UHGV virus genome: UHGV-0121437
Reading direction: 5' to 3' (one strand)
DNA: 13,778 bases
Source: a virus
Part shown: positions 1 through 13,778 of the stretch, in pieces
Numbering within the stretch: the stretch's first letter is position 1
Layout of the letters: each line of letters starts with the position of its first letter
Notes under the pieces: model-generated
Databases searched by the model: none
What the model was told of the DNA's origin: nothing
Seen by the model: only the letters and a program-made list of their open reading frames with translations
Position numbers and translations under genes: made by a program

Positions 1-112
1 TTAGTGATTGTCCAGTCCTGCTCGTCTATGACGCGCTTAAAACCTGACACTTTGACCGGCGTTTCCGTGTAAATATCTGCCCGGCCGGTAGCCAGGCTGA
101 TGGAGAACTCTG

Positions 113-541
113 CTAACCGGCACCCGGCAGGGACGCCCAGATATTGCGACAGCGTGAAATGGCGCGCTCAATGCGTCCCGCCCGGATGTCATCCAGTGCA
201 CCGCGTTCGCGGATCAACTGAATGGCGAGTCTGTCCTGCGACAACGGACTGAAATCCGGCAGGGCAAGCTGTTTGCGGTAGTGCGGCCAGAACAGGTAAA
301 GCTGCTGATAGCGACCGGAGGCCGTGGATTTTTCACCGCGACGGTTAAACACCTTCGCCGGTCGGCCATGTGCGAACGGGTGGTCACTGTAGTCGGTGAA
401 GATTTCCGGCTTCCCGTCCAGTCCGGTGACTATCACGTCATAGCCCCGGTTTTTCGTCAGCGGGTGATTCGCCGTCCCTTCGGACACGGCCAGCATGTCG
501 AGAAAGGCAGCGATATTCTGATGCGTGTTAATTACCGGCAT
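113..541 (-). CDS. K: Endolysin (P2 gpK-type lysozyme)
   Basis: 142-aa ORF beginning MPVINTHQNIAAFLDMLAVSEGTANHPL, recognisable as P2 K. Its ATG shares one nucleotide with the Y stop (TAATG on the minus strand at 539-543). Confidence 0.85.
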   Translation of the reverse strand: MPVINTHQNIAAFLDMLAVSEGTANHPLTKNRGYDVIVTGLDGKPEIFTDYSDHPFAHGRPAKVFNRRGEKSTASGRYQQLYLFWPHYRKQLALPDFSPLSQDRLAIQLIRERGALDDIRAGRIERAISRCRNIWASLPGAG

Positions 542-822
542 TACGGTTTCCCCCTGCCCTTAAAACGGCGCTGAATGGCAATCTCAATCACCTGATAACC
601 GGCGATACCCAGCATGGAGCCGATGCCGCACACCGCAGGCAGTGACAGGTCAGGAAACTGCACCAGAACAACACCGGCAACCATCGAGACAAAACCACCG
701 AGCAACATGCGCCCGATAAACAGACGCGGGGTGATGGGTTCACCACCGGCAAGCACCTTGCCGACAACAATCAGCACCCCAATCATGAAAAGCGACAGGA
801 CGCTTTTTTCTTCTGCTGTCAT
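541..822 (-). CDS. Y: Holin (P2 gpY-type)
   Basis: 93-aa ORF, MTAEEKSVLSLFMIGVLIVVGKVLAGG..., hydrophobic membrane segments; lies between X and K as in P2. Confidence 0.85.
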   Translation of the reverse strand: MTAEEKSVLSLFMIGVLIVVGKVLAGGEPITPRLFIGRMLLGGFVSMVAGVVLVQFPDLSLPAVCGIGSMLGIAGYQVIEIAIQRRFKGRGKP

Positions 823-825
823 GCG

Positions 826-1029
826 TTACTCCCACAGATTGACAGTTTCAGCCACGGGTGCGGTCTGAACGTCGGGCAGTTCGACGGCGGTGCCGTGCGG
901 CAACACCGCACCCAGTTCAGCCAGTCCCGGATTTGCGGCGAGCACGGCCTCGACCACGCCCTCAGTGCGCCCGTAATACCGGACACAAATGGCGTCGAGC
1001 GTGTCGCCCTGTAGCGCAAAGGTCTTCAT
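826..1029 (-). CDS. X: Tail protein gpX (small LysM-like protein)
   Basis: The 67-aa product starts MKTFALQGDTLDAICVRYYGRTEGVV and ends TVNLWE. The start ATG (1027-1029) shares a nucleotide with the L stop (TGATG). The longer ORF-track version (826..1098) is an in-frame upstream extension running into L. Confidence 0.8.
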   Translation of the reverse strand: MKTFALQGDTLDAICVRYYGRTEGVVEAVLAANPGLAELGAVLPHGTAVELPDVQTAPVAETVNLWE

Positions 1030-1538
1030 CAGATTTGACTCACGATGCAGCGCGGCTTGTCCTGGATACGCGCCCCCGCCCAGCGCATATCCCGCCACAG
1101 TTCATCAATGGTGCTGTCAATGCTGTCAGCCTTCTTGTCGCCTTTCGCACTGGCATCCACGCCGCGATAACGCTCATAAAGCGACGCGGTCGCCATCGCA
1201 CACACGGCGCGCTCGTAGTAAAAAACTTTGATGCTTTCACCGTCGATATCGTCCGCCGGGACGTCCGCCAGACGCGTAAAACCGGCAGCAATTTTCTGTT
1301 CGCGGTACTCGTACAGCTCCGCATTCGTCTCCGCCATGCCTGACTTGATGGCCTCACGCAGACGGGCGGGGGCGACGGTCTGCTCAAGGCGCATACGTTC
1401 CCGGACGCGCTTCGGGTCGATATTGGGAAAAAAGAACGTGTTTTTAATCACCGGCTCGTCGCCTGCCGGTTGCGGGATGACCACCGTACCCTCACCGGAC
1501 ACGGGAGCCTCCTTTCGCGGAATAATCAGCGTCATCAT
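1029..1538 (-). CDS. L: Head completion/stabilisation protein gpL
   Basis: 169-aa product starting MMTLIIPRKEAPVSGEGTVVIPQPAGDEP. The ATG at 1536-1538 is preceded by GAGG (plus-strand cctc at 1544-1547). The ORF-track start at 1598 is an upstream extension without a ribosome-binding site. Confidence 0.85.
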   Translation of the reverse strand: MMTLIIPRKEAPVSGEGTVVIPQPAGDEPVIKNTFFFPNIDPKRVRERMRLEQTVAPARLREAIKSGMAETNAELYEYREQKIAAGFTRLADVPADDIDGESIKVFYYERAVCAMATASLYERYRGVDASAKGDKKADSIDSTIDELWRDMRWAGARIQDKPRCIVSQI

Positions 1539-1637
1539 GACTACCTCAGAAAAGTCGGGCGGTGGACGCCGGTGCAGTGTCAGGTGATTCACCCTCACTG
1601 ACCGGCGTGCCGCCCTGGCGCGGGGCGCATTCGGTTG

Positions 1638-2381
1638 TTAACTGGCTTTCTTTTTCGGGCGTCCACGTTTTGCCGGTGTCACGCTCCGGGTCTTACGCGG
1701 GGCGCGGGGGGACGCTTTGGGCTGCGGCTCCGGCTTCGGTTTCAGCTCCCGCTCCAGTCGTTCAATCTCTTTTTTGACGCCTGCCTGACAGTCGAGCTGT
1801 GTCGCACGTTGCAGGTGAGCCAGCGCACCGGCGGCATCACCAGCGTCACGCAGAAACAGACCGGTGATTTTGTGCAGCTTTGCGCGCACTTCATCAGGCA
1901 TGTCAGCCGTGGCGGTCAGTTCAAGGGTCTCCGTCAGCAGGCGGGTATCCACAGACTCACCGGCAGCGTGAGCGCGCATGGCCGCAAGCGCTACCTCCTC
2001 GGTGAACATGTACGGCGGGGTACGGCGGTGTTTACCCGGCATGGTCAGACCGTACTTCAGGACATAACGGGCAATCTCCAGCGCACCGGCAATATCGCCG
2101 GTATCCAGACGCCACAGCATGACCGTCATCAGAATGTCATCCTGTGCACCTTTGCCCTGCTCCAGCACGCCGTTCACCCACGGCAACCAGAACGGCAGCA
2201 GTTCGCGTTTTTTCGCGGCCTTCAGCTCTTTTGAATAAATCGCTTTCAGTGTGCGCTGGTCTGCGGCGAGCTTAACCAGCATCTGCTCATAGACAGTTGC
2301 ATGTCGCAGCGGGGCGGCTTCCCGCTGCGCGGTCATCGCTGCCGAGACCCGCATCATGTGGCGCTGTGCGGGACTCGTCAT
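1638..2381 (-). CDS. M: Terminase endonuclease/small subunit gpM
   Basis: 247-aa ORF, MTSPAQRHMMRVSAAMTAQREAAPLRHATVYEQ..., with a basic C-terminal tail (RGRPKKKAS), matching P2 M. GGGAG ribosome-binding site upstream of the ATG. Confidence 0.9.
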   Translation of the reverse strand: MTSPAQRHMMRVSAAMTAQREAAPLRHATVYEQMLVKLAADQRTLKAIYSKELKAAKKRELLPFWLPWVNGVLEQGKGAQDDILMTVMLWRLDTGDIAGALEIARYVLKYGLTMPGKHRRTPPYMFTEEVALAAMRAHAAGESVDTRLLTETLELTATADMPDEVRAKLHKITGLFLRDAGDAAGALAHLQRATQLDCQAGVKKEIERLERELKPKPEPQPKASPRAPRKTRSVTPAKRGRPKKKAS

Positions 2382-2384
2382 CGG

Positions 2385-3458
2385 TTACGCTCCCGGCTCT
2401 GCGGTCGCTTTATCCGGTGTGGAGAAATCACCGACCTTAATTTTTTCCACCAGACAACCGGCGGCGTAGTCCTCCACCACGTAATCAATGTTCATTGACT
2501 CGTAGTTCTCCACGCGGTCGAGTTTCGGGTTTTCCACAATCACGCGGCGATGGCTGTCATCCATGTAGTAGATGGACAGGTTTTCCAGCTTTGTGATGAG
2601 CATCGCATCCGCCGGGAAGTACGGGACGCGTACCGCCGGCAGGTTACCGATGCGTTTCTGGCTGATGATGACGTCAGCGGCCAGCATCTCGCTGTTGTCC
2701 TGCTCTTTGTTAACGATGGGGAAATACTTGTCCGCCAGTAGCTGACGCCCCACAATCACCACAAGGTCAGGGTCTTCCTGATACCACGGCTCAATCAGGT
2801 TGTTGGTCGCATCCATCACCAGTGCATCGAGGCTGGCATAATCACCGCCCTTACCCACGCGGATGACCTCAGAGGTGGTGTGCCCTTCCTCGTCCGTAAC
2901 CTTGCTCATCACGCGCGCCGGGGCTTCATTGCGGTATTTCTGCAGCCAGCCGACCGCCACATCCTGCAGCATCGGATTACTGCTGCGGTCAGAGGTTTCG
3001 GCACGCTTCACGCCGTTAAAACCGGCCATGATGAAATCAAGGGACTGGCGTTTGATAATGGCGTTACGGATACGGAGCTGGAAATCCTGATAACGCGCCC
3101 ACAGGTCCAGCGTTTTGTAGCGGATATAAAAATCGAAGTTAATCTGGTCGCATTCGTACTTGTTTGACGCCAGCTTCGAGAAGTCCTTCGGCTGACGCTC
3201 GGTGCCACCGGCGGTGTCGGTGGTGCTGGCGATGGAGCCGGTGACACCAATACCAATTTTTTCCCCTTTCATTTCGCTGACCGGCACAATGTTGATGCGG
3301 GTCAGAAAGTCAGAGGACTCCTGCATGGTGTTCATCAGGGTCTGGGTGACCGACGGTTCAACGGTGAATTTTTTCGACACATCACCGGCGTCGATGCTGT
3401 TCAGTTCGGCAACACGGGACAGGTAGGCATTAAATTTAAAGCGGGTTTCCTGGCGCAT
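2385..3458 (-). CDS. N: Major capsid protein gpN
   Basis: 357-aa ORF, MRQETRFKFNAYLSRVAELNSIDAGDVSKKFTVEPSVTQ..., matching P2 N. AGGAAAAA ribosome-binding site upstream. Confidence 0.9.
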   Translation of the reverse strand: MRQETRFKFNAYLSRVAELNSIDAGDVSKKFTVEPSVTQTLMNTMQESSDFLTRINIVPVSEMKGEKIGIGVTGSIASTTDTAGGTERQPKDFSKLASNKYECDQINFDFYIRYKTLDLWARYQDFQLRIRNAIIKRQSLDFIMAGFNGVKRAETSDRSSNPMLQDVAVGWLQKYRNEAPARVMSKVTDEEGHTTSEVIRVGKGGDYASLDALVMDATNNLIEPWYQEDPDLVVIVGRQLLADKYFPIVNKEQDNSEMLAADVIISQKRIGNLPAVRVPYFPADAMLITKLENLSIYYMDDSHRRVIVENPKLDRVENYESMNIDYVVEDYAAGCLVEKIKVGDFSTPDKATAEPGA

Positions 3459-3516
3459 AGTTTTTCCTGAAATTAAGGGTTAATCGTGAAGGTTTTCCCG
3501 GACTGACTGACGCCGG

Positions 3517-4074
3517 TCAGCAGTTCGTCATCAGGGCGTCACCGCCACCGCCGGTGGCTTTGCTGCGGCGCTGCTGGGTCAGACTTTCGGTGTGGTCGAG
3601 ACTGTTTTTCAGGCGGGTGAATGCCTGACTGGTTTCATCCGCCCTGTCAGTTACATCCTGCTTAAGTGCCGAAAAGGCGGTTTCCATCTCAGCAAGGCGC
3701 TGCTCAGTGGCGCTCAGTTTTTCCTGCACATGCTCAGCGACAGCGGTCACCGCTTCATGCACGTCATTCAGACGGGCGTCATCGCTGGCCTGTTTGCGGC
3801 CAAAAATGGATTTCACCTTTTCGGTCAGGGCGGTGAACACGGTTTCAGGCAGGTCTTCAAATTCCAGCTCAACAGGCGTTGCCACTGAAATCAGGTTTTC
3901 AGGGCTTAATTTGAAGCGGTTCAGAGGGTTGTGTTTTGCCGTGCGGCAGAATTCCAGGTATTCCGTGCCGAGGCTTGCCGGGTCATCGGTGACGGCCAGA
4001 CCCACCAGATAACATTTGCCTGTATTGGCAAAGTTCGGCTGAATTTCCATTGAGGTACTCGACCGCCGTGACAT
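3517..4074 (-). pseudogene. O: Capsid scaffolding protein gpO, N-terminally truncated fragment (about 100 N-terminal residues missing)
   Basis: 185-aa ORF whose body ([28 protein letters not shown] ... [11 protein letters not shown]) matches the C-terminal two-thirds of P2 O (about 284 aa as I recall). The first codons (MSRRSSTS) are read from the antisense of Q-derived sequence, so the start is fortuitous. Confidence 0.7.
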
Positions 4075-4162
4075 TCTGGATTACGTCGAGTGCATCAGTA
4101 ACGGCAGATGGTATGAGCCACCGGTCAGCTTTACCGGTCTGGCAAAAAGCCTGCGTGCTGCC

Positions 4163-4990
4163 GTGCATCACAGCTCACCGATTTACGTCAAACGTAATAT
4201 TCTGGCCTCGACATTTATCCCGCATCCGTGGCTTTCCCAGCAGGATTTCAGCCGCTTTGTGCTGGATTTTCTGGTGTTCGGTAATGCGTTTCTGGAAAAG
4301 CGTTACAGCACCACCGGTAAGGTCATCAGACTGGAAACCTCACCGGCAAAATATACCCGCCGTGGCGTGGAGGAGGATGTTTACTGGTGGGTGCCGTCCT
4401 TCAACGAGCCGACAGCCTTCACGCCCGGCTCCGTGTTTCACCTGCTGGAGCCGGATATTAATCAGGAGCTGTACGGCCTGCCGGAATATCTCAGCGCCCT
4501 TAACTCTGCCTGGCTGAATGAGTCGGCCACGCTGTTCCGCCGCAAGTATTACGAAAATGGCGCTCATGCCGGATACATCATGTACGTTACCGATGCCGTG
4601 CAGGATCGCAACGATATCGAAATGCTTCGCGAAAACATGGTGAAGTCGAAAGGCCGCAACAACTTTAAAAACCTGTTTCTCTATGCCCCGCAGGGGAAAG
4701 CCGACGGCATTAAAATTATCCCGCTCAGTGAAGTGGCGACGAAGGACGATTTTTTTAATATCAAAAAAGCCAGCGCCGCTGACCTGCTGGACGCGCACCG
4801 CATCCCCTTTCAGTTGATGGGCGGTAAGCCGGAGAACGTCGGGTCGCTGGGTGATATTGAGAAAGTGGCAAAGGTCTTTGTCCGCAATGAGCTTATCCCG
4901 TTACAGGACAGGATTCGGGAAATAAACGGCTGGCTCGGTCAGGAGGTCATCCGCTTTAAAAACTACTCACTGGACACTGACAACAGCTGA
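4163..4990 (+). pseudogene. Q: Portal protein gpQ, 5'-truncated (first conventional start is GTG at 4163)
   Basis: 275-aa ORF, (V)HHSSPIYVKRNILASTFIPHPWLSQQDF ... YSLDTDNS, matching P2 Q (about 344 aa). The frame is open from 4043 and encodes Q-like [25 protein letters not shown] with no ATG/GTG/TTG before 4163; the authentic N-terminus is absent. Confidence 0.75.
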
Positions 4991-4995
4991 ACATC

Positions 4996-5017
4996 GCCGC
5001 CTGCGGGCGGCTTTTTT
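4996..5017 (+). terminator. Intrinsic terminator downstream of Q
   Basis: GCCGCC (4996-5001), loop TGCG, GGCGGC (5006-5011), then TTTTTT (5012-5017), 6 nt after the Q stop. Confidence 0.6.
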
Positions 5018-5158
5018 ACATCCCGTCATCACGCCCTCACACACTCACCACCGCACAAAACAGCCCGCAGGCAAACCAACGCCCAACGGACAGACTAAGC
5101 GCCGTCACGACGCGCTGAGACGCTGAAAAAATAAAATCAGCAACACCGCCAGCGCGCA

Positions 5159-5177
5159 GTGCTTTCCCCGCCTCGCC
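5159..5177. other. cos site (19-nt cohesive-end sequence of P2-type phages)
   Basis: gtgctttccccgcctcgcc is the reverse complement of GGCGAGGCGGGGAAAGCAC, which I recall as the P2 cohesive end. It lies just beyond Q, as expected. Confidence 0.7.
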
Positions 5178-5200
5178 CGCCCGCTTCGTGGGGCGGTTTT
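5177..5200 (+). terminator. Terminator-like hairpin abutting cos
   Basis: CCGCCC (5177-5182), 8-nt loop, GGGCGG (5191-5196), then TTTT (5197-5200). Confidence 0.4.
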
Positions 5201-5227
5201 AATGCAGATGCATGTGAACACTCGAGA

Positions 5228-5257
5228 TTGACTGGATAAGACCTAAGGTGCATTAAT
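5228..5257 (+). promoter_or_regulatory. Candidate sigma70 promoter for the AT-rich cassette
   Basis: TTGACT (5228-5233), 18-bp spacer, then TGcATTAAT (extended -10-like, hexamer 5252-5257), about 60 bp upstream of the first cassette ATG. Prediction by eye only. Confidence 0.35.
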
Positions 5258-5315
5258 TTTTTGTTTTTTTACATGCAGTTTGATGCAAGAACATGCCCTC
5301 TAAAGTCTTGGTTTA

Positions 5316-6365
5316 ATGTGCTACACTTTTATACAAACCTATGATAAAAGCGATAAAAAATCTTCCATTTTGGCGAACATTATGACGGATATTGAAACAG
5401 CTCGATGGAACACAGAAAGTGCCGCTTTGTTGGCACTATCAGAAATACATGGCGTTAGTTATTGGACTCTATATAAAGTTGCTCAAAAGGGAATCAGATT
5501 TAGAGACATTGTTACCAGCCAAACATTAGCCAACTTTGAGTATCTACTTGGAGTAAAACTTCATCGCCAACCTTATTATTTGAATGAAGGCAATTGGTCT
5601 GTTTTTCGGGATAGCATGATTTCTACGGCTAAAATATTACTCACACATTATCATAATAGTGGTTACAAAATCATCCACCATGGTTCTCCGAGCTATCCAG
5701 ACAAGTTGAATGACCTGTCTGAGCCGCCTTTCTGGTTGTTTGCTCAAGGCAATGTATCCTTGCTAGATAAAAAGTGTGTTGGAGTTGTCGGCACCAGAAA
5801 CCCAACCGCACTTGGAATTTATTTAACTCAAGCAGTAATCTCGCAATTTATAGATTCGGATTATTCAACTGTAAGCGGTTTAGCATATGGTATAGATCAA
5901 TCTGCACATGAAGCATCCCTGTTATTTAAAATACCGACAATTGCTGTGTTAGGTACTGGCGTAAACTCAAATTATCCCAAAAATAGTGGCGAGATGAGAG
6001 GCCATATTGTAAATAATGGCGGACTGATTCTTACTGAGTATTTACCAAACCAAAAACCATCACAGGAAAACTTTGTTCGTAGAAATAGAATTCAAGCAGC
6101 TTTAAGTGATGTATTGATCCCAGTTGAATGGGGCCTAAAAAGTGGGACATCTCATACTGTGAGATATGCTGCTCAATTAAAAAGAGCGATACTTTGTCCT
6201 TTACTTAGGGGAACTACACCTCAAGAAGAGATTAAACATGCCTTGTCAGAGTACTCAGCTACGATAATGAATATTCCACTATCCGATTTTAAAGACGTGC
6301 AAAGCTTAATTAAATCAGCATCCGGTGTAAAAACACAGCAACTTTCTCTTCTGGGAGATGAATAA
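5316..6365 (+). CDS. DprA/Smf-like protein (helix-hairpin-helix-like N-terminus plus Rossmann/SLOG-type DprA core)
   Basis: 349-aa ORF in AT-rich DNA. Core motifs resemble the DprA Rossmann domain: VGVVGTRNPTALG, VSGLAYGIDQSAHEASL, TIAVLGTGVNSNYPKNS, FVRRNRIQAALSDVLIPVEWGLKSGTSHTVRYA. The start may instead be the in-frame ATG at 5382; neither has a strong ribosome-binding site. Confidence 0.7.
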   Translation: MCYTFIQTYDKSDKKSSILANIMTDIETARWNTESAALLALSEIHGVSYWTLYKVAQKGIRFRDIVTSQTLANFEYLLGVKLHRQPYYLNEGNWSVFRDSMISTAKILLTHYHNSGYKIIHHGSPSYPDKLNDLSEPPFWLFAQGNVSLLDKKCVGVVGTRNPTALGIYLTQAVISQFIDSDYSTVSGLAYGIDQSAHEASLLFKIPTIAVLGTGVNSNYPKNSGEMRGHIVNNGGLILTEYLPNQKPSQENFVRRNRIQAALSDVLIPVEWGLKSGTSHTVRYAAQLKRAILCPLLRGTTPQEEIKHALSEYSATIMNIPLSDFKDVQSLIKSASGVKTQQLSLLGDE

Positions 6366-7641
6366 TATGTATTTAAAGGCAGTTATATTTTCAATCGCAG
6401 ATGTTGTATTACCATTAACATCTAACACTCAACCTCAGGAACTAAAATCTAGAATCGACTCTGAATTACGTAAGTTGTTTGCGTTTTTGTCATCAAAAGG
6501 GATTAAAGTTATCTTCTTGACAAATAAAAATAGAAACGTGAGAACACATGACGGGATCGTAACACTAGACGAATACCTAAAAAGGAAATTCCCAGAATCA
6601 ATTCACTTTTGCCGTGAACTCGACAACAACATACCAGCAAAACAAACAGGGAAGGCCATAGATTTCATCATGGCTGCGTTAGAATTAAAACGAAACGAAA
6701 TGATCTATGTAGGGCGTTCTCAGGAAGACTTACAAGCAGCTACCAACGGGAATACCCTATTTATTAATGCGACCTGGTATGAACCGGTTACTGAGTACGG
6801 TTTTCAATTTTCAGAACCCAAAGAAATCGCTAGATTTATTGATGTCTTTTGCTTAAGAGAGCAGTTGTGGGGATGGCAAGGGCATTTTAATGAAGATGTT
6901 CACTACTACGCCTTAGCACCATTTAGCACATATGTCCCTGAATTTACAATGTATTCAGCCAATGCAAGAGACCTCGCAAAGCTATCGGTTGGAAGCCCCG
7001 ATTTTTGGATAAGATATCTTGGTGCTAGCATTTATTTCTCTGGCTTAAGTGAAGGAGCAAGTTTTATAACCACCTACGTTGGACATAACGCTGAAGATCC
7101 TTATAAACTAGCAAACATTATGGAGCATGACCTAAAAGGTTTAGCAGTCTCATTCAAAGGAAAGTATCTAAAAGATCTATTCTTACGACATACAACAGCT
7201 ATTAAATCACAGCAAGCTCGGATAGCTAAGCAAGAAGTAAACATCACATCTCAAATAAACACCGTTAATTTAAATCCTGCCCCTATTAAAAACCTCATCA
7301 CCGGCGAAAGATATACCAACCCTCCTAAATTGAAAGGTAAGAAAATATTAGTTATTGATGATTTTTGCACTGAAGGAAATGCTCATGAAACAGCCAGAAT
7401 GTATCTAAAAGCTGCAGGCGCAAATGTAATAAATATATCGTGGTTAAAAACCATCAATCGTGACGTTTCTATCTGTGAACCAACTCGCAAGATACGGCCA
7501 TGGGAGGCCAATACACTTGATGTTGATGACATTAACTATGTCGGTACGATTGGTTATGCTGAAAATGTAACTCACGGTAGTGCACCTCAAGTGTTATCAG
7601 AAAAAATTCAACAATATGATAACTGGGACTGGCCACAATAA
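6358..7641 (+). CDS. Two-domain protein: N-terminal HAD-like fold with degenerate catalytic motifs, C-terminal type I phosphoribosyltransferase (PRTase) domain
   Basis: 427-aa ORF in AT-rich DNA. The C-terminal KKILVIDDFCTEGNAHETARMYLKAAGANVI fits the PRPP-binding loop of type I PRTases (four hydrophobic residues, DD, then T-x-G). The N-terminal KAVIFSIADVVLPL, KVIFLTNKN and MIYVGRSQEDLQAATNGNTLFINATW resemble HAD motifs I, II and IV, but the nucleophile position is not Asp. It overlaps the upstream gene by 8 bp; an alternative ATG at 6367 has GGGAG 9 nt upstream. Confidence 0.65.
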   Translation: MNNMYLKAVIFSIADVVLPLTSNTQPQELKSRIDSELRKLFAFLSSKGIKVIFLTNKNRNVRTHDGIVTLDEYLKRKFPESIHFCRELDNNIPAKQTGKAIDFIMAALELKRNEMIYVGRSQEDLQAATNGNTLFINATWYEPVTEYGFQFSEPKEIARFIDVFCLREQLWGWQGHFNEDVHYYALAPFSTYVPEFTMYSANARDLAKLSVGSPDFWIRYLGASIYFSGLSEGASFITTYVGHNAEDPYKLANIMEHDLKGLAVSFKGKYLKDLFLRHTTAIKSQQARIAKQEVNITSQINTVNLNPAPIKNLITGERYTNPPKLKGKKILVIDDFCTEGNAHETARMYLKAAGANVINISWLKTINRDVSICEPTRKIRPWEANTLDVDDINYVGTIGYAENVTHGSAPQVLSEKIQQYDNWDWPQ

Positions 7642-7654
7642 ATTAATCCCATAA

Positions 7655-7690
7655 TTTAAAGTGCCCCCTAATAATGGGAGGCACTTTAAA
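7655..7690. terminator. Strong hairpin, probable (possibly bidirectional) terminator between the cassette and A
   Basis: Perfect 11-bp stem: tttaaagtgcc (7655-7665) pairs with ggcactttaaa (7680-7690), 14-nt loop, A/T-rich flanks; 14 bp after the PRTase-gene stop. Confidence 0.5.
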
Positions 7691-7816
7691 TATTAAGAAG
7701 ATAATGTCATTAAGCGAAATTTAACTATAATTTAAAACATTACAATTATTATTTTTTAAACTTTACTATTACCCAATCCATCAATAAGACCTGTATTTAT
7801 TCGTAATTTAATAGCC

Positions 7817-10072
7817 TTACCACTCATCAATCACTGGATATTTGAATTTTTTATTATCATAAATCACCATCGCCCCACGCGCCAGCGCCTCAAGCTCCCA
7901 TCGCTGAGGCCTGATACCGTTCTGAGCAAGGTCAACGCGGATACGGGTAATTTGCAATCGTTCCGGCCGGGTCAGCCTGGCCGATGGTGCAATTTCATGT
8001 GGTTTTAACGGGCTTCCGTTTCTTTGCTGACGATTTGGTGTTCTCAGGCCGTGTTTTAATGCGCCCCTGAGCACCCTCACGACCTCCGGGTCATTCCATT
8101 CGATAACACCGTCATCAACCAGATTAAGCACTGCTGCGGCGTGTTCAGAAGGTGTGGGAGCCGGTAACGAAGTATCACCACCGGTGAGCTTTCCACAGTT
8201 ATTGACAGGACTCCGAGGCGCGGCGATGCCGCTTTTTAAAGTCAAAGGCTCAACGACCGGCACTTTCGGAACAATGCGCCAGTCCGTCGTTCTGGTGATA
8301 TGAATATGACGCGCGCCGAGATGCGGCGCGTAAATGCCGACCACTCTCCCGACTTCTTCCTCGTACTCGTTAACGTCATCCGACGGACTACGGGCAACCC
8401 TGACAGTCTGACAATCGCGCGGAACATTTGCCCCACCCTGCGCGCTGATATACAACGCAAAATCACCACTGTCTGCGGCAGCGCGTGCAGCCTCGACGCG
8501 TTCGTCAAACTCATCAGCAATGCTGACGCCGCGAGGCAATTTGCGTAGTTCACGGTAAGCCCCCATTGTCGGCAGGCCAACCGTTTTAAATTGCGGAATG
8601 CGCCACGTTGACGCCCATGCGGTAACAGCCGCGGCAGTGTCTTTCAGCGGCCTGCCGGTATCGTTATCGAGCTGACCATCCAGTGCATAGCCATCGATGT
8701 TTTTTGAGATGTATTTCGCGATATATCCCGCAGCACCGCCCCGGTTAAGGTGTTTTGCCTGAAAACGGTTTCGCGCGGCTCCTCTTTCGTCACCATCCTC
8801 TTTGAGCGCATAGCGACGCATGATTTCGATAATCTGGTTACGCTGGCGTGGATTACAAAAAAGCATCATATGCCAGTGCGGCGTTCCGTCGTGGTGTGGC
8901 TCGACGACTCGCAAACCGTAGACCTGTAAATCATTATCCTTGAATGCCGTGCGCATCAGGCTCCAGATGCGGCAGAGATAACGCTGCGCATCCTTTGGAT
9001 TAAATGCCTCATCATTCCAGCCGTGATTTAGCTGGACGGTTTTACTTTCGCCTTTTCCGACCTGACGTGTCGGGTGATACTTTGACGGCGCGGTCAGAGT
9101 GATAAACATCCCCACATCACCCTCTGCGGCGGCGTAACGCTCAATACCGGCGATGGTGTTCATCAGCTCCATCCGGCGAATTTCAGGATTAGAAATACTG
9201 CCCATCACCTTACTGATAAGGTCGATGCGCTCGCCGGTTTCCCTGTTTTCGAGGTCACACGATTTAAGAAATTCCAGATTTGCCTGGCGGCGTGCACGCA
9301 CATCACGAATGGCATGTTTACTGGCATAAGGAGAACGGTCTTTATTGACCTCCCCGACAGCAATCAGTAACGCCTCATGCCAGCGCATACGCTGGCCTTT
9401 AAGCTGATGAGTCCACCATTCATCGTTAAACAGACGGGCAATGGCAGAATATGCCTGCCTCGTGGTCATCTGTCCTTTACGGTATTTTTTCCAGTAGAGA
9501 GGGGAAATATTGAAAGCACGTGCAGCGCCAGCAACATGACCATACAGATGCGCCTGCGCCTCATCTGTAAACAGCGATTCTTTCTCGCCATGTGCATCAA
9601 CCCATGCATCGCAGAGTTCCTCATACATCATGAAAAGCTGCGATGAGATACGGGCGGCAAACTTTTTCAGCTCCTTGTCATTCATTCCAGGCAGGCGCGC
9701 ATAGTGGTCACGCTCTGCCAGAAACAGCAACGACGCGTCGGTGTTCATTTCATGGCGCTGATTCACGCGCTCAATACGCGGCCATAAACGGCGCTGAAAA
9801 GTGGATGTGAGGAAATAAAACCCGTGCACCGGGCTTTTATTGCGCCGGATGTAGTCATAGCGTGAAGTAAACAGCGAGCGCAAAAAGTAAGGCAGGCGAT
9901 TAATCGTGGATAAAACACCTTGCACCTGACGCATCTCGTCACGTGTAAGGGGTCTTTCGCGCCCGACGGCCTCGCGTGGCGCGTTCCATGCATAAGCACC
10001 GGTAAACGTCTCACCGGTGCCTGCGGCAAATGCTGACGGAGGGACAAAACGCCCGGAGGCTTTAACGGCCAT
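7817..10072 (-). CDS. A: Replication initiation protein gpA (rolling-circle nicking endonuclease)
   Basis: The long ORF matches P2 A from MAVKASGRFVPPSAFAAGTGETFTGAYAWNAPREAV. The start is placed at the ATG at 10070-10072; the ORF-track start at 10114 adds 14 codons with no ribosome-binding site. Confidence 0.9.
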   Translation of the reverse strand: MAVKASGRFVPPSAFAAGTGETFTGAYAWNAPREAVGRERPLTRDEMRQVQGVLSTINRLPYFLRSLFTSRYDYIRRNKSPVHGFYFLTSTFQRRLWPRIERVNQRHEMNTDASLLFLAERDHYARLPGMNDKELKKFAARISSQLFMMYEELCDAWVDAHGEKESLFTDEAQAHLYGHVAGAARAFNISPLYWKKYRKGQMTTRQAYSAIARLFNDEWWTHQLKGQRMRWHEALLIAVGEVNKDRSPYASKHAIRDVRARRQANLEFLKSCDLENRETGERIDLISKVMGSISNPEIRRMELMNTIAGIERYAAAEGDVGMFITLTAPSKYHPTRQVGKGESKTVQLNHGWNDEAFNPKDAQRYLCRIWSLMRTAFKDNDLQVYGLRVVEPHHDGTPHWHMMLFCNPRQRNQIIEIMRRYALKEDGDERGAARNRFQAKHLNRGGAAGYIAKYISKNIDGYALDGQLDNDTGRPLKDTAAAVTAWASTWRIPQFKTVGLPTMGAYRELRKLPRGVSIADEFDERVEAARAAADSGDFALYISAQGGANVPRDCQTVRVARSPSDDVNEYEEEVGRVVGIYAPHLGARHIHITRTTDWRIVPKVPVVEPLTLKSGIAAPRSPVNNCGKLTGGDTSLPAPTPSEHAAAVLNLVDDGVIEWNDPEVVRVLRGALKHGLRTPNRQQRNGSPLKPHEIAPSARLTRPERLQITRIRVDLAQNGIRPQRWELEALARGAMVIYDNKKFKYPVIDEW

Positions 10073-10337
10073 ATGAGCCAAAAGCCTCTGAACAACGCTT
10101 GCTGAGTTGCTCAACCTGCGCGTTTAAATCAGCAAAAGACTTTGCGCTTCCGGTCAGAATATCGTGATGCATCAGGCCGGAAACGAGCTGGCTTAATTTC
10201 GGGTAATAACCAGCCACCGCCAGCCATTCCTGACCGGCGTTTTTACCGCTTTCCGCTCTCTTTTTCTCGTGGAGAATAAACTGAAAGCTGTCACTGGTAA
10301 CGACATAACGTTCGCCAATTTCAATACGAATACTCAT
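10062..10337 (-). CDS. Small early-operon protein immediately upstream of A (P2 orf83 position)
   Basis: 91-aa ORF MSIRIEIGERYVVTSDSFQFILHEKKR...; its start overlaps the preceding stop (ATGA) and its end overlaps the A start. Confidence 0.6.
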   Translation of the reverse strand: MSIRIEIGERYVVTSDSFQFILHEKKRAESGKNAGQEWLAVAGYYPKLSQLVSGLMHHDILTGSAKSFADLNAQVEQLSKRCSEAFGSYGR

Positions 10338-10558
10338 GACGTTCTCCGGTAATGTTTGTTTTTTGCTTCAAAGACTGACTGGCAGGAAACACAACGCGTG
10401 GCTGACGGATAAGCCGCACGACGGGCAGCAGGTATTGGCGCGTCACACTCTTCGCAAACCAGCGCAGAAACACCGCAATGCTTTACCCTTGCCGCGTTAA
10501 TCTGGCGCTCCAGTAATTCAGCCTGTTGTTCCTGAATAAAATCTACGTTGTCCGGCAT
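10334..10558 (-). CDS. TraR/DksA-family C4 zinc-finger protein (P2 orf82 position)
   Basis: 74-aa ORF with four Cys arranged C-x(6)-C-x2-C ... C-x2-C (HCGVSALVCEEC ... RCVSCQ), typical of TraR/DksA-like zinc fingers. Confidence 0.65.
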   Translation of the reverse strand: MPDNVDFIQEQQAELLERQINAARVKHCGVSALVCEECDAPIPAARRAAYPSATRCVSCQSVFEAKNKHYRRTS

Positions 10559-10863
10559 TACCAGCTCCTTTTGTCGTTAAGTTTTTTAAATTCATCAGCG
10601 CAATAGCTGGCAATTTCTGTCGTTAATTTCGTCAGTTCATCCACGGAGGAGATTTGCTTGTGAAATACAGCGCGTTTAACAAGTAAATTGACCACATCAG
10701 ACAGGAGATTTAATTCGTTCTGATAAATCGCGATAACAGACTCAGTTATTTCGCGTTTTTCTTTATCAAGACCAAGTTGAATAAGAGATAAATCGCCATT
10801 TTTCATAACGGCGATTTTTAAGGCGTTATTCAGTAATACAACTGAACGAGAACAGGACATCAA
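10558..10863 (-). CDS. Early-operon hypothetical protein (P2 orf81 position)
   Basis: 101-aa [34 protein letters not shown]...; overlapping stop/start with both neighbours; visibly more AT-rich than neighbouring genes. Confidence 0.55.
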
Positions 10864-11084
10864 AGCACCTCCCCGCGAGACAATCCGATATTGTGAAATT
10901 TTTCCGACTCCTGACTGAGCAGCTCGACTATCTCCACGCGGGATAACTCCGCCTTTGTGATGTGGCGAATCATGGCGTCAAGATGAGAAGAAAAGCGCGT
11001 CGCTGCGTCGGCCTGTGCTTCGGTTCTGGCCTGTTGCAGCAGTAATGCGTATTTACCGCACTGATTTTCAGAAACTGTATGCAT
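10860..11084 (-). CDS. Early-operon hypothetical protein (P2 orf80 position)
   Basis: Product starts [24 protein letters not shown]; the ATG at 11082-11084 is preceded by GGAGAAAG. The ORF-track start at 11117 is an extension. Confidence 0.6.
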
Positions 11085-11147
11085 GACTTTCTCCAGGCAA
11101 AAAGAAGCCCCGCACAATTAAGTGCGTTAAAAACTCTGGTTAATTAC

Positions 11148-11648
11148 TTAATGCAGATATTGCTCTGGTTTTACCGACGTCAGAATTGTCGGTGCATACT
11201 CAAACAGGCTGAATAATTCACGTAATGCACGGAATAAAGCATCACGCCAGTAACATGATTCTTCATTAATTCGCCAGTATGGCTGGTTGAATTCTTTTTC
11301 AGTCAATCCGGCATGCATAAATAAAGTACGACGCTGACTGACTGTTAAAAAACTAATATATGCATACTCACTTGCGCCAACCTGACGGCGTTTTGAGAAT
11401 GCCCCACGCAATTCATCAATTGCACATACCAGTCGTTCACGTTCGACATCATTCATTTCTTCAAAACGCATCGTTGCGTGACGCTGTTTTAACTGCGCAT
11501 GGAAGCAAACCGTTAGCCGTTCGCGTTCCATCATCTGATTATAATAATCGCATGTCTCCTGCCAGCGAGGGACGGCAAGATGCTTACCAATTATCCGGCG
11601 CATAGCTGCTGGCTGTTTTTCAACGAGATTAAGCGTCATCACTGTCAT
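11148..11648 (-). CDS. B: Replication protein gpB
   Basis: 166-aa ORF MTVMTLNLVEKQPAAMRRIIGKHLAVPRWQETCDYYNQ..., matching P2 B in length and sequence as recalled. Confidence 0.85.
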   Translation of the reverse strand: MTVMTLNLVEKQPAAMRRIIGKHLAVPRWQETCDYYNQMMERERLTVCFHAQLKQRHATMRFEEMNDVERERLVCAIDELRGAFSKRRQVGASEYAYISFLTVSQRRTLFMHAGLTEKEFNQPYWRINEESCYWRDALFRALRELFSLFEYAPTILTSVKPEQYLH

Positions 11649-11815
11649 TTCCAGACCCTCCGGCTTTTCAGAAAGGTCAGAGCCTTTTTTAACGGACTCT
11701 GTTTTTTGGTGCGGATAATGATTCCCTTACGCCCCTTACCGTGGGTGATGGTGAAGTCAATCGCCCTAGGGCTTTCGTTACGCAGTAACTGAGCAATACA
11801 ACGAGGCTCATTCAT
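11645..11815 (-). CDS. Small basic protein (P2 orf78 position)
   Basis: 56-aa product MNEPRCIAQLLRNESPRAIDFTITHGKGRKGIIIRTKK... with AAGGAG immediately upstream of the ATG at 11813-11815. The ORF-track start at 11839 would overlap cox. Confidence 0.6.
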   Translation of the reverse strand: MNEPRCIAQLLRNESPRAIDFTITHGKGRKGIIIRTKKQSPLKKALTFLKSRRVWK

Positions 11816-11825
11816 ACGGTTCTCC

Positions 11826-12101
11826 TTAACGTGGTTCACCGAGACCTAACCACATCAACCAGCCGTCACGAATCTCTTTAGGGCGGCTTTCATAAGCCAG
11901 TTTTAGTCCGTTATTCCATGCCGGAAGGTATACCCAATATTCACCTGCACGACCTGAAGCTGATTGTGGATCGGTCATATCAATTACAGGCAGCTTTCCT
12001 TTATCAATCATCCGACGAACCGCTCCTGTCGATTTTCCTATTAGTTTTGCGAACTCCTGATAAGGAATCGCATCAGTCATGAGTGTTACTTGCTTGCTCA
12101 T
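11826..12101 (-). CDS. cox: Cox (excisionase and lytic-switch regulator)
   Basis: 91-aa ORF MSKQVTLMTDAIPYQEFAKLIGKSTGAVRRMIDKGKLPV..., matching P2 Cox; divergent from C. Confidence 0.9.
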   Translation of the reverse strand: MSKQVTLMTDAIPYQEFAKLIGKSTGAVRRMIDKGKLPVIDMTDPQSASGRAGEYWVYLPAWNNGLKLAYESRPKEIRDGWLMWLGLGEPR

Positions 12102-12138
12102 GTCGTCCTCTAGCCCTCATGAATTGCGTTTAATGTCT

Positions 12139-12212
12139 TATAATGCCTTTTAGTGCCCACATCCAAGCACTAAACAATCTACATCTAAACTAAATACTAT
12201 TGAGATCTAAAC
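12139..12212. promoter_or_regulatory. Immunity switch region: Pc-like -10 and candidate C-repressor operator repeats over the lytic promoter
   Basis: Perfect TATAAT at 12139-12144 on the plus strand, oriented toward C. Two identical 8-bp direct repeats atctaaac at 12183-12190 and 12205-12212 (22 bp centre to centre). An 8-bp inverted repeat tttagtgc/gcactaaa at 12149-12156 and 12167-12174. P2 C is known to bind two direct repeats flanking the Pe -10. Confidence 0.5.
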
Positions 12213-12215
12213 ACC

Positions 12216-12515
12216 ATGTCAAACACGATAAGCGAGAAGATAGTCTTAATGCGAAAATCAGAGTATTTGAGCAGACAACAACTTGCTGATTTAACAGGGG
12301 TTCCGTATGGCACGCTGAGTTACTATGAAAGTGGTCGTTCAACACCTCCAACAGATGTCATGATGAACATCCTGCAGACCCCACAATTCACCAAATACAC
12401 TTTATGGTTCATGACCAATCAGATCGCTCCTGAGTCCGGGCAAATTGCGCCCGCTCTCGCACACTTTGGGCAAAACGAAACAACGTCGCCCCACTCCGGT
12501 CAAAAGACTGGTTAA
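12216..12515 (+). CDS. C: Immunity repressor C
   Basis: 99-aa ORF MSNTISEKIVLMRKSEYLSRQQLADLTGVPYGTLSYYESGRSTPP... with a helix-turn-helix region, matching P2 C. Confidence 0.9.
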   Translation: MSNTISEKIVLMRKSEYLSRQQLADLTGVPYGTLSYYESGRSTPPTDVMMNILQTPQFTKYTLWFMTNQIAPESGQIAPALAHFGQNETTSPHSGQKTG

Positions 12516-12630
12516 CAATTCATCGTGAATATATTCATCACAAGTGCCTACTATTGGTGGCTAAATTTCAGCCACCACGAAAAAAGCGATTAGTAGTCAC
12601 AAAAAAACACACCACTCGGAGGGTTTTCTG

Positions 12631-13644
12631 ATGGCAATCAAAAAACTCGATGATGGTCGATATGAAGTGGACATCCGCCCTACTGGACGTAATGGAAAAC
12701 GCATCCGTAGGAAGTTTGATAAGAAAAGCGAAGCTGTCGCTTTCGAGAAATACACGTTGTACAACCACCACAATAAAGAATGGCTATCAAAACCAACAGA
12801 CAAGCGACGTCTGTCGGAGCTGACACAGATCTGGTGGGATTTAAAGGGTAAACACGAAGAGCATGGGAAATCTAATCTTGGAAAAATTGAAATCTTCACA
12901 AAAATAACGAATGACCCATGCGCATTTCAAATTACGAAATCGCTTATCAGCCAGTACTGCGCCACCCGAAGAAGTCAGGGTATTAAACCTTCGAGTATCA
13001 ATCGTGATTTAACATGTATTAGCGGCATGTTTACAGCCCTGATTGAAGCGGAGTTATTCTTTGGTGAGCACCCTATCAGAGGGACAAAAAGGCTTAAGGA
13101 GGAAAAACCAGACACAGGCTATCTCACGCAGGAAGAAATTGCCTTACTGCTTGCAGCACTTGACGGCGACAACAAAAAGATTGCGATTCTTTGCCTGAGT
13201 ACAGGAGCACGTTGGGGAGAAGCAGCTCGTTTGAAAGCAGAAAATATCATCCATAACCGCGTCACGTTTGTTAAAACGAAAACAAACAAACCACGCACCG
13301 TCCCGATCTCAGAGGCTGTTGCCAAAATGATCGCGGATAACAAACGAGGTTTTTTATTCCCTGATGCTGATTACCCTCGCTTCAGACGAACAATGAAAGC
13401 AATAAAACCGGATTTGCCAATGGGGCAAGCCACACATGCACTAAGGCACAGCTTTGCCACTCATTTCATGATTAATGGAGGAAGTATTATCACGCTACAA
13501 CGGATACTAGGTCACACGCGGATTGAGCAAACTATGGTTTACGCTCATTTTGCGCCAGAGTACCTTCAGGACGCCATTTCTCTTAATCCGCTAAGAGGTG
13601 GTACTGAGGCCGAGAGTGTCCACATAGTGTCCACAGTAGAGTAA
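12631..13644 (+). CDS. int: Tyrosine integrase
   Basis: 337-aa ORF MAIKKLDDGRYEVDIRPTGRNGKRIRRKFDKKSEAVAFEKY... with the C-terminal tyrosine-recombinase region (HALRHSFATHFMINGGSIITLQRILGHTRIEQTMVYAHF); GGAGGG ribosome-binding site upstream. Confidence 0.9.
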   Translation: MAIKKLDDGRYEVDIRPTGRNGKRIRRKFDKKSEAVAFEKYTLYNHHNKEWLSKPTDKRRLSELTQIWWDLKGKHEEHGKSNLGKIEIFTKITNDPCAFQITKSLISQYCATRRSQGIKPSSINRDLTCISGMFTALIEAELFFGEHPIRGTKRLKEEKPDTGYLTQEEIALLLAALDGDNKKIAILCLSTGARWGEAARLKAENIIHNRVTFVKTKTNKPRTVPISEAVAKMIADNKRGFLFPDADYPRFRRTMKAIKPDLPMGQATHALRHSFATHFMINGGSIITLQRILGHTRIEQTMVYAHFAPEYLQDAISLNPLRGGTEAESVHIVSTVE

Positions 13645-13723
13645 CGTTTAAGGGCTTTCAGTGGTAATTTATGCCGCTCAAACCCGCATTGTACCGTTGA
13701 AAGCCCCTACTGGTGACACCCTA

Positions 13724-13750
13724 AATCTCCCTTACACGGGCTTATTTTTT
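13724..13750. other. 27-bp att core (P2 attP/attL-type)
   Basis: aatctcccttacacgggcttatttttt is the reverse complement of AAAAAATAAGCCCGTGTAAGGGAGATT, the P2 att core as I recall it; 80 bp beyond the int stop. Confidence 0.7.
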
Positions 13751-13778
13751 TATGCATAAGCCCTATCTCTGGTAACCG

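Follow-up and report, generated by a model that had tools for sequence, protein, structure and literature searches.

A junction of internal O with internal Q in a P2-like prophage of Escherichia coli, very probably the product of a 2,361-bp deletion

The portal gene Q and the terminase gene P of P2-type phages lie on one strand and the O operon on the other, with the Ogr-dependent late promoters between them. The initial annotation of the DNA described here started from this arrangement, which matches the P2 annotation, and pointed to a region where an O-like and a Q-like reading frame abut (positions 4043–4074) with neither the terminase large-subunit gene nor the divergent late promoters in between. 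The question raised by this locus is whether a functional prophage has lost these elements, and if so, how, and what became of the genes that remain. The stretch analyzed, termed the window, is 13,778 bp and represents an entire metagenome contig (ENA ERZ1755939, NODE_1724_length_13778_cov_5.5) with a k-mer coverage of 5.5.

The window is in reverse orientation to the standard P2 map. The P2-type order K-Y-X-L-M-N-O, P-Q, cos, cargo, A to B-cox and C-int is collinear in the window as determined by blastn and Pfam. Among 5,426 complete E. coli genomes, the closest intact relative was found in strain LD27-1 (NZ_CP047594.1), whose prophage is located between yegQ and yegR. DNA sequence identities by blastn are 98–99% to LD27-1 and 97–98% to P2 (NC_001895). 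Beside the integrase gene is a 27-nt attR core (positions 13724–13750) that is identical at all 27 positions to the attL core of K-12, and it is followed by 28 nt of E. coli flanking sequence from the yegR side (13751–13778), which matches both K-12 and LD27-1. On these matches the element is classed as a P2-like (Peduovirus) prophage at the cyaR/yegR attachment site of E. coli.

Genes on the left side of the window are on the minus strand. They begin with D', a tail-gene fragment at 1–115 (P2 23857–23745, about codons 319–356), and K', an endolysin remnant at 113–541 that encodes 142 of 165 aa and ends in a stop codon created at its junction with D'. Five full-length genes follow: Y (541–822), X (826–1029), L (1029–1538), M (1638–2381) and N (2385–3458). 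Next are O', the remnant of the scaffold/protease gene (3517–4056), and on the plus strand Q', the remnant of the portal gene (4054–4990). A tQ-type intrinsic terminator, known from the P2 annotation, is found 3' of Q (4996–5011, plus strand), and the cos site is at 5159–5177, where it matches P2 cosL 1–19 and cosR 33575–33593. The right side of the window contains the cargo genes shosA and shosT, an intact early operon on the minus strand (7817–12101), the immunity repressor gene C (12216–12515, plus strand) and int (12631–13644, plus strand). The early operon consists of A (7817–10072), orf80-83, B (11148–11648), orf78 and cox (11826–12101).

Alignment with the intact relatives by blastn locates the junction precisely. 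Window positions 114–4056 align to positions 1501–5443 of the LD27-1 locus, i.e., P2 nt 7424–3482, and positions 4054–13778 align to 7802–17525 of the same locus (P2 nt 1123–1 and onward). The alignments have 3 nt in common, GGT at positions 4054–4056; this triplet is present in both parental sequences and represents a 3-bp microhomology. Internal O is thus joined to internal Q, as had been proposed, and the junction falls within the interval first indicated. The missing segment corresponds to P2 nt 1124–3481 and measures 2,361 bp by the difference in alignment offset. The P2 record places Q at 187–1221 (minus strand), P at 1221–2993 and O at 3167–4021, with the P-operon start at 3016, the pO/pP activator site at 3057–3087 and the O-operon start at 3127. 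All of P, the activator site and the two starts of late transcription fall inside the missing segment, which confirms that the terminase gene and the divergent promoters are gone. A tblastn search with gpP of LD27-1 gave no match in the window at E ≤ 1e-3. Every other LD27-1 protein has a full-length match in the window with 98–100% identity, the truncated O, Q and K excepted. The clean single junction and the near-identical intact relatives conform to a cryptic prophage formed by deletion. Very probably, as judged from the aligned sequences, this is a real 2,361-bp deletion in a P2-like prophage, with RecA-independent illegitimate recombination at the GGT microhomology as the most likely route.

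The deletion has left two gene remnants. O is kept from P2 nt 3482 and has lost codons 1–105, close to the approximately 100 N-terminal codons of the first estimate; codons 106–284 remain. The first ATG of O' is Met108 at position 4050, which gives a product of 177 aa. An alternative start, ATG at 4074, adds eight foreign residues that are read from antisense Q (185 aa). gpO has an N-terminal protease domain (residues 1–141) and a C-terminal scaffolding domain (residues 195–284) (PMC7552001). O' is without most of the protease domain, and the scaffolding domain is kept. Q is kept up to P2 nt 1123 and has lost its first 98 nt, i.e., 32.7 codons, where about 30 had been estimated; Q' comprises codons 34–344. 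There is an in-frame stop 5 codons upstream of the junction in the Q frame. Reading of this frame shows that, as previously noted, no start precedes GTG 4163; this is the first ATG, GTG or TTG in Q' and corresponds to Q codon 70, from which the gene caller gives 275 aa.

Q' has no promoter. Genes Y, X, L, M and N are full length, yet pO, their sole promoter in the P2 O-operon annotation, has been deleted, and a consensus scan of positions 3400–5400 found no sigma-70-like promoter. The probable loss of the promoter for the O-N-M-L-X-Y-K operon, proposed from the reading frames, is therefore upheld. O'-N-M-L-X-Y-K' and Q' are presumably transcriptionally silent, and the element would be unable to package DNA or build heads. 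Since P, the late promoter, the start of Q and the tail genes are lost, no particles are expected from this element alone. The initial annotation had come to the same expectation, which was an understatement in that a second deletion, at window positions 113–115, takes out a further 16.3 kb and with it every tail gene. P could be supplied in trans if an intact P2-like prophage were present in the same host. The complete essential late-gene set (P, Q, O, tail genes V-G and FI-D) is not present in the window, nor are the Ogr-dependent promoters. From its gene content the element is a defective derivative of Peduovirus and not a functional member, and it should be called defective in annotation.

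The second deletion joins K (up to P2 nt 7424) to D (from P2 nt 23745). P2 nt 7425–23744 are absent, a total of 16,320 bp that carries lysA/B/C, R, S, V-G, FI-U and most of D, and with them all baseplate, fibre, sheath, tube and tape-measure genes. The overlap at this junction is the 2-bp TA when the D allele of intact prophages is used; D genes that are 100% identical to window positions 1–113 are present in intact form. In comparison with the prophage of LD27-1 and with P2, the window is similar in gene order, attachment site, ShosTA cargo, cos, att core, early operon, C and int, but is without P2 nt 1124–3481 and nt 7425–23744.

A native arrangement, in which this lineage would naturally be without P at this position and would encode its terminase elsewhere, is extremely improbable and is contradicted by the alignment. 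Apart from the absence of P in the 13.8-kb contig, nothing speaks for this reading. O and Q are truncated mid-gene relative to 97–99% identical relatives that carry P between them, and Q' is without a start before codon 70. The relatives do carry P: the O-P-Q block is intact in LD27-1, the closest of them, and among the 1,759 complete E. coli genomes in which the block is found, 1,596 have it essentially complete, i.e., with at least 80% of the block in one place. The other genomes, approximately 9%, have no place that covers at least 80% of the block.

Deletions of a comparable type are found in complete genomes. GPEC1240 (NZ_CM142783.1) has internal O joined to internal Q (P2 3772 to 599) with a 12-bp overlap, EF7-18-58 has the P/O intergenic region joined to internal Q (P2 3019 to 945) with a 6-bp overlap, and MB7671 has a deletion internal to P (P2 2651 to 1595) with a 10-bp overlap. 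All three resemble the window in that an internal deletion removes or breaks P at a short microhomology. They differ from it in their endpoints and thus represent independent events. Prophage decay by deletion is well known, and the window adds a new allele to it; the feature is real, reproducible and ordinary. Other joins, which represent large internal deletions with short overlaps, were observed in the same survey. KFu022 has U' joined to R' (P2 22129 to 8951) with a short overlap (locus L017, 4546–4747). EF7-18-58 has an additional join of J' to Y' (P2 11799 to 6944; L020, 94–96), and MB7671 has an additional join of ogr' to M' (P2 24161 to 5364; L021, 1674–1676), the latter in a remnant at the same yegQ site as the window prophage.

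An assembly artefact, in which metaSPAdes would have produced a chimera or collapsed a repeat at low coverage although O-P-Q is intact in the real genome, has to be considered for a single contig of k-mer coverage 5.5. Moreover, E. coli often has two or more P2-like prophages (a median of two places per genome), which complicates assembly graphs. However, the 26-mer that spans the O'-Q' junction is found in five further assemblies: ERZ19661888, ERZ915957 (run ERR1620366, labelled human gut metagenome), ERZ27239093, ERZ28578488 and Logan ERR11869406. With the window, there are six assemblies from different samples, of gut or other metagenomes, so the junction is reproducible in independent data. 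The five carriers have 0–1 differences from the window over 717–834 nt. Contig-naming schemes and assemblers differ among them, and the carriers differ by real alleles, which are synonymous and clustered. One contig from ERZ28578488 (sample SAMEA4431979) matches window positions 4108–1 at 99.88% without gaps over 4,108 nt and carries both window junctions; there are five differences, all synonymous, four of which are clustered in M. A 3-bp overlap is also not producible by traversal of a de Bruijn graph, which needs a shared k-mer. As the same junction is present in assemblies from different samples and assemblers, misassembly is very unlikely, and this explanation was dropped once the five other contigs were known.

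The additional carriers were found by exact look-ups of the proteins created at the junctions, K' (142 aa) and O' (177 aa), and all are short metagenome contigs. An exact look-up of the 185-aa reading of O' returned no record at all. The O'-Q' junction is absent from the 5,426 complete E. coli genomes, from GTDB representative genomes, from JGI metagenomes and from IMG/VR, and none of the complete E. coli genomes spans the O'-Q' or the K'-D' junction. Many contigs have one end precisely at codon 108 of O or codon 142 of K; a breakage hot spot was considered here and the pattern was attributed to selection by the exact-sequence look-up.

Contigs from two of the other samples, ERZ27239093 (locus L140, 3719–3798) and ERZ915957 (L143), have the O'-Q' junction in common with the window but a different second deletion. 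Here L is retained to P2 nt 6233 and is fused to D at P2 nt 23485, with TAC as the overlap. These contigs keep D sequence that is absent from the window and are without the L-X-Y-K' sequence that the window keeps. Because each variant keeps DNA that the other lacks, neither the K'-D' nor the L'-D' form is derived from the other. With two variants that each have their own second deletion, the shared O-Q deletion is probably the older event. Under this order, the late genes left by the O-Q deletion would have become dispensable, and the lysis and tail region would then have been lost independently, by the K'-D' deletion in the window and by the L'-D' deletion in the other samples. The end product is a locked-in remnant of approximately 14.3 kb with C, integrase, cox, replication genes, cos and ShosTA. 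Between the two variants, divergence is approximately 4–5% in D' and 0.4–0.6% in the head-gene region. Homologous recombination between prophages could blur the order of events or could have moved the O'-Q' junction.

As to how the O-Q deletion arose, no direct repeat longer than 3 bp is shared by its endpoints. Replication slippage or end joining at GGT would both be RecA-independent routes of illegitimate recombination. The 3-bp overlap is modestly above chance (roughly 5% by our own calculation), so the mechanism is one that we infer. A generic illegitimate recombination is favored because there is no repeat beyond GGT, no IS remnant and no likeness to the att core. An Rfam scan gave no match.

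A dedicated enzyme, either P2 Int acting at secondary att-like sites or an IS element that caused a deletion beside its insertion site and has since been lost, would be the alternative, and it is improbable. Its support comes from the other junction of the window, where D is joined to K at the start of a TACAC motif in D with similarity to the central and left part of the att core, and from the cryptic remnant PR-X of K-12, in which this motif is also the point of fusion with the att core; Int-type events may occur in these prophages. At the O'-Q' junction, in contrast, the endpoints GAGGT/GTAGAC and GCCGGT/ACTCGA are unlike the core, AATCTCCCTTACACGGGCTTATTTTTT, and there is neither IS sequence nor a target duplication. 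Comparable deletions elsewhere have different endpoints and overlaps of 3–12 bp, as a microhomology mechanism predicts. An origin of the O'-Q' junction by Int was rejected, as the endpoints are without similarity to the att core. Illegitimate recombination at GGT remains the preferred reading for this junction.

The TACAC motif in D is itself of interest. The D-side breakpoint (window 103–118) is at the start of this motif, where the D allele reads AACTCTGC TACAC CCCG. The att core (window 13724–13750) reads ATCTCCCT TACAC GGGC, and the motif in D resembles its left half and centre. PR-X (ogrK-yegZ, NC_000913 2167183–2167811; locus L015, 3800–3830) is joined to the att core within the same motif. 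TACAC could serve Int as a secondary site, or it could be a hot spot for microhomology. PR-X is similar to the window element in that it is a P2-like remnant at the same chromosomal site with a D' that ends within TACAC. It differs in its size of 629 bp, with nothing left between D' and the attR core, whereas the window still has head genes, cos, cargo, early genes and int. Common descent of the two from one D breakpoint was considered and rejected. The D' alleles differ by 3.5%, and this reading is further weakened by the intact D genes that are 100% identical to the window fragment. With the TACAC allele of D, the breakpoints of the window and PR-X need only share one 5-nt motif.

The initial annotation further suggested that immunity, integrase and a defence cassette could be retained, and this is borne out. 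C, cox, int, A, B, cos and ShosTA are intact in the window, as determined by tblastn against LD27-1 and, for ShosTA, by PADLOC. The DprA-like antitoxin ShosA (5382–6365, plus strand) and the PRTase toxin ShosT (6367–7641, plus strand) are full-length PADLOC matches (E = 1.7e-231 and 3.4e-294, respectively) that form an adjacent pair in the P2 hotspot, the interval from cos to gene A. The protein sequences of ShosA, ShosT, C, cox and Int show 100% identity to their counterparts in the intact LD27-1 prophage. Repressors of the P2 type are not known to be SOS-inducible. Differences between the window and LD27-1 are mostly synonymous, in the silent late genes and in the early genes alike. The gpA allele (7817–10072) has seven aa differences from LD27-1, and an exact look-up of this protein returned only the window contig. 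The allele looks like mosaic ancestry rather than decay because the nucleotide differences are mostly synonymous.

Retention of these genes makes domestication, i.e., maintenance by selection, plausible. The loss of P and the late promoters would disarm the prophage, and the host would keep the ShosTA defence and superinfection immunity; this is a tentative reading, somewhat doubtful on present evidence. Equally tentative is what disarming would consist of, i.e., no lysis and no transactivation by P4-type satellites. The complete protein identity of ShosA, ShosT, C, cox and Int to an intact prophage is consistent with selection, as is the fact that the deletion allele has persisted across six samples and in both structural variants. 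Protection against T7 and lambda has been reported for the DprA-PRTase (ShosTA) pair of P2 hotspots (PMC9122126). On the other hand, the silent genes N and M are equally intact with differences that are equally synonymous, and the allele is rare, being absent from the 5,426 complete genomes. As silent N and M are equally intact, the conservation would reflect young age rather than selection, and the mostly synonymous differences give no signal by which the two could be told apart.

A further reading is based on the retention of cos, the A/B replication module with its ori, int, cox, the repressor and ShosTA. The remnant could be a helper-dependent mobilisable "mini-P2" that is excised, replicated and packaged by a heteroimmune P2-like helper and spreads ShosTA in the manner of a satellite. 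Such mobilisation is quite unlikely, and so is the form of packaging that it would entail, e.g., the approximately 14.3-kb remnant as a dimer of approximately 28.5 kb in a P2-size head. If this were the case, a satellite would have been caught arising from its own helper lineage, and the presence of the O-Q allele in six samples and two variants would represent spread and not vertical descent only. The satellite P4 is a useful comparison. It is also small, integrated and cos-bearing, and makes no particles without a P2-type helper. The P4 genome is 11.6 kb, smaller than the window element. None of sid, psu, delta, epsilon or alpha is among the 20 called genes of the window by Pfam, and the element does not classify as a P4 satellite. 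In contrast to P4, the window element has arisen by deletion from the helper type itself and carries the helper's own repressor, and its genes all match P2-type genes of LD27-1.

The locus provides a well-resolved example of stepwise prophage decay, in which the packaging motor and late promoters were probably lost first and the lysis and tail genes, by then of no use, in independent events thereafter, with immunity and an anti-phage system kept intact. It is also a small data point for defence cargo that outlives its phage. The current understanding of P2-like phages is unchanged by this deletion; the added value is modest: the steps of decay are resolved, and a defence pair has survived intact in a disarmed prophage.

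Gene O shows other interruptions. In several P2-like prophages that are otherwise complete and come from unrelated samples, O has an in-frame stop at codon 102 or 99 (loci L005, 3171–4025; L007, 9680–10534; L013; L014; L141; L142). The TAG at codon 102 in L125 is in the same place as in L005, and the TAG at codon 99 in L129 is in the same place as in L007. These stops split O into products of 101 or 98 aa and 177 aa, and the prophages that carry them surfaced only through the exact look-up of the 177-aa product. In one additional contig (Logan SRR31280294_153; locus L134, 1–45), which begins 32 nt before O', the sequence next to O is unrelated and meets O only 3 nt upstream of Met108. The join is 3 nt from the O breakpoint of the window and may represent a repeat or IS boundary.
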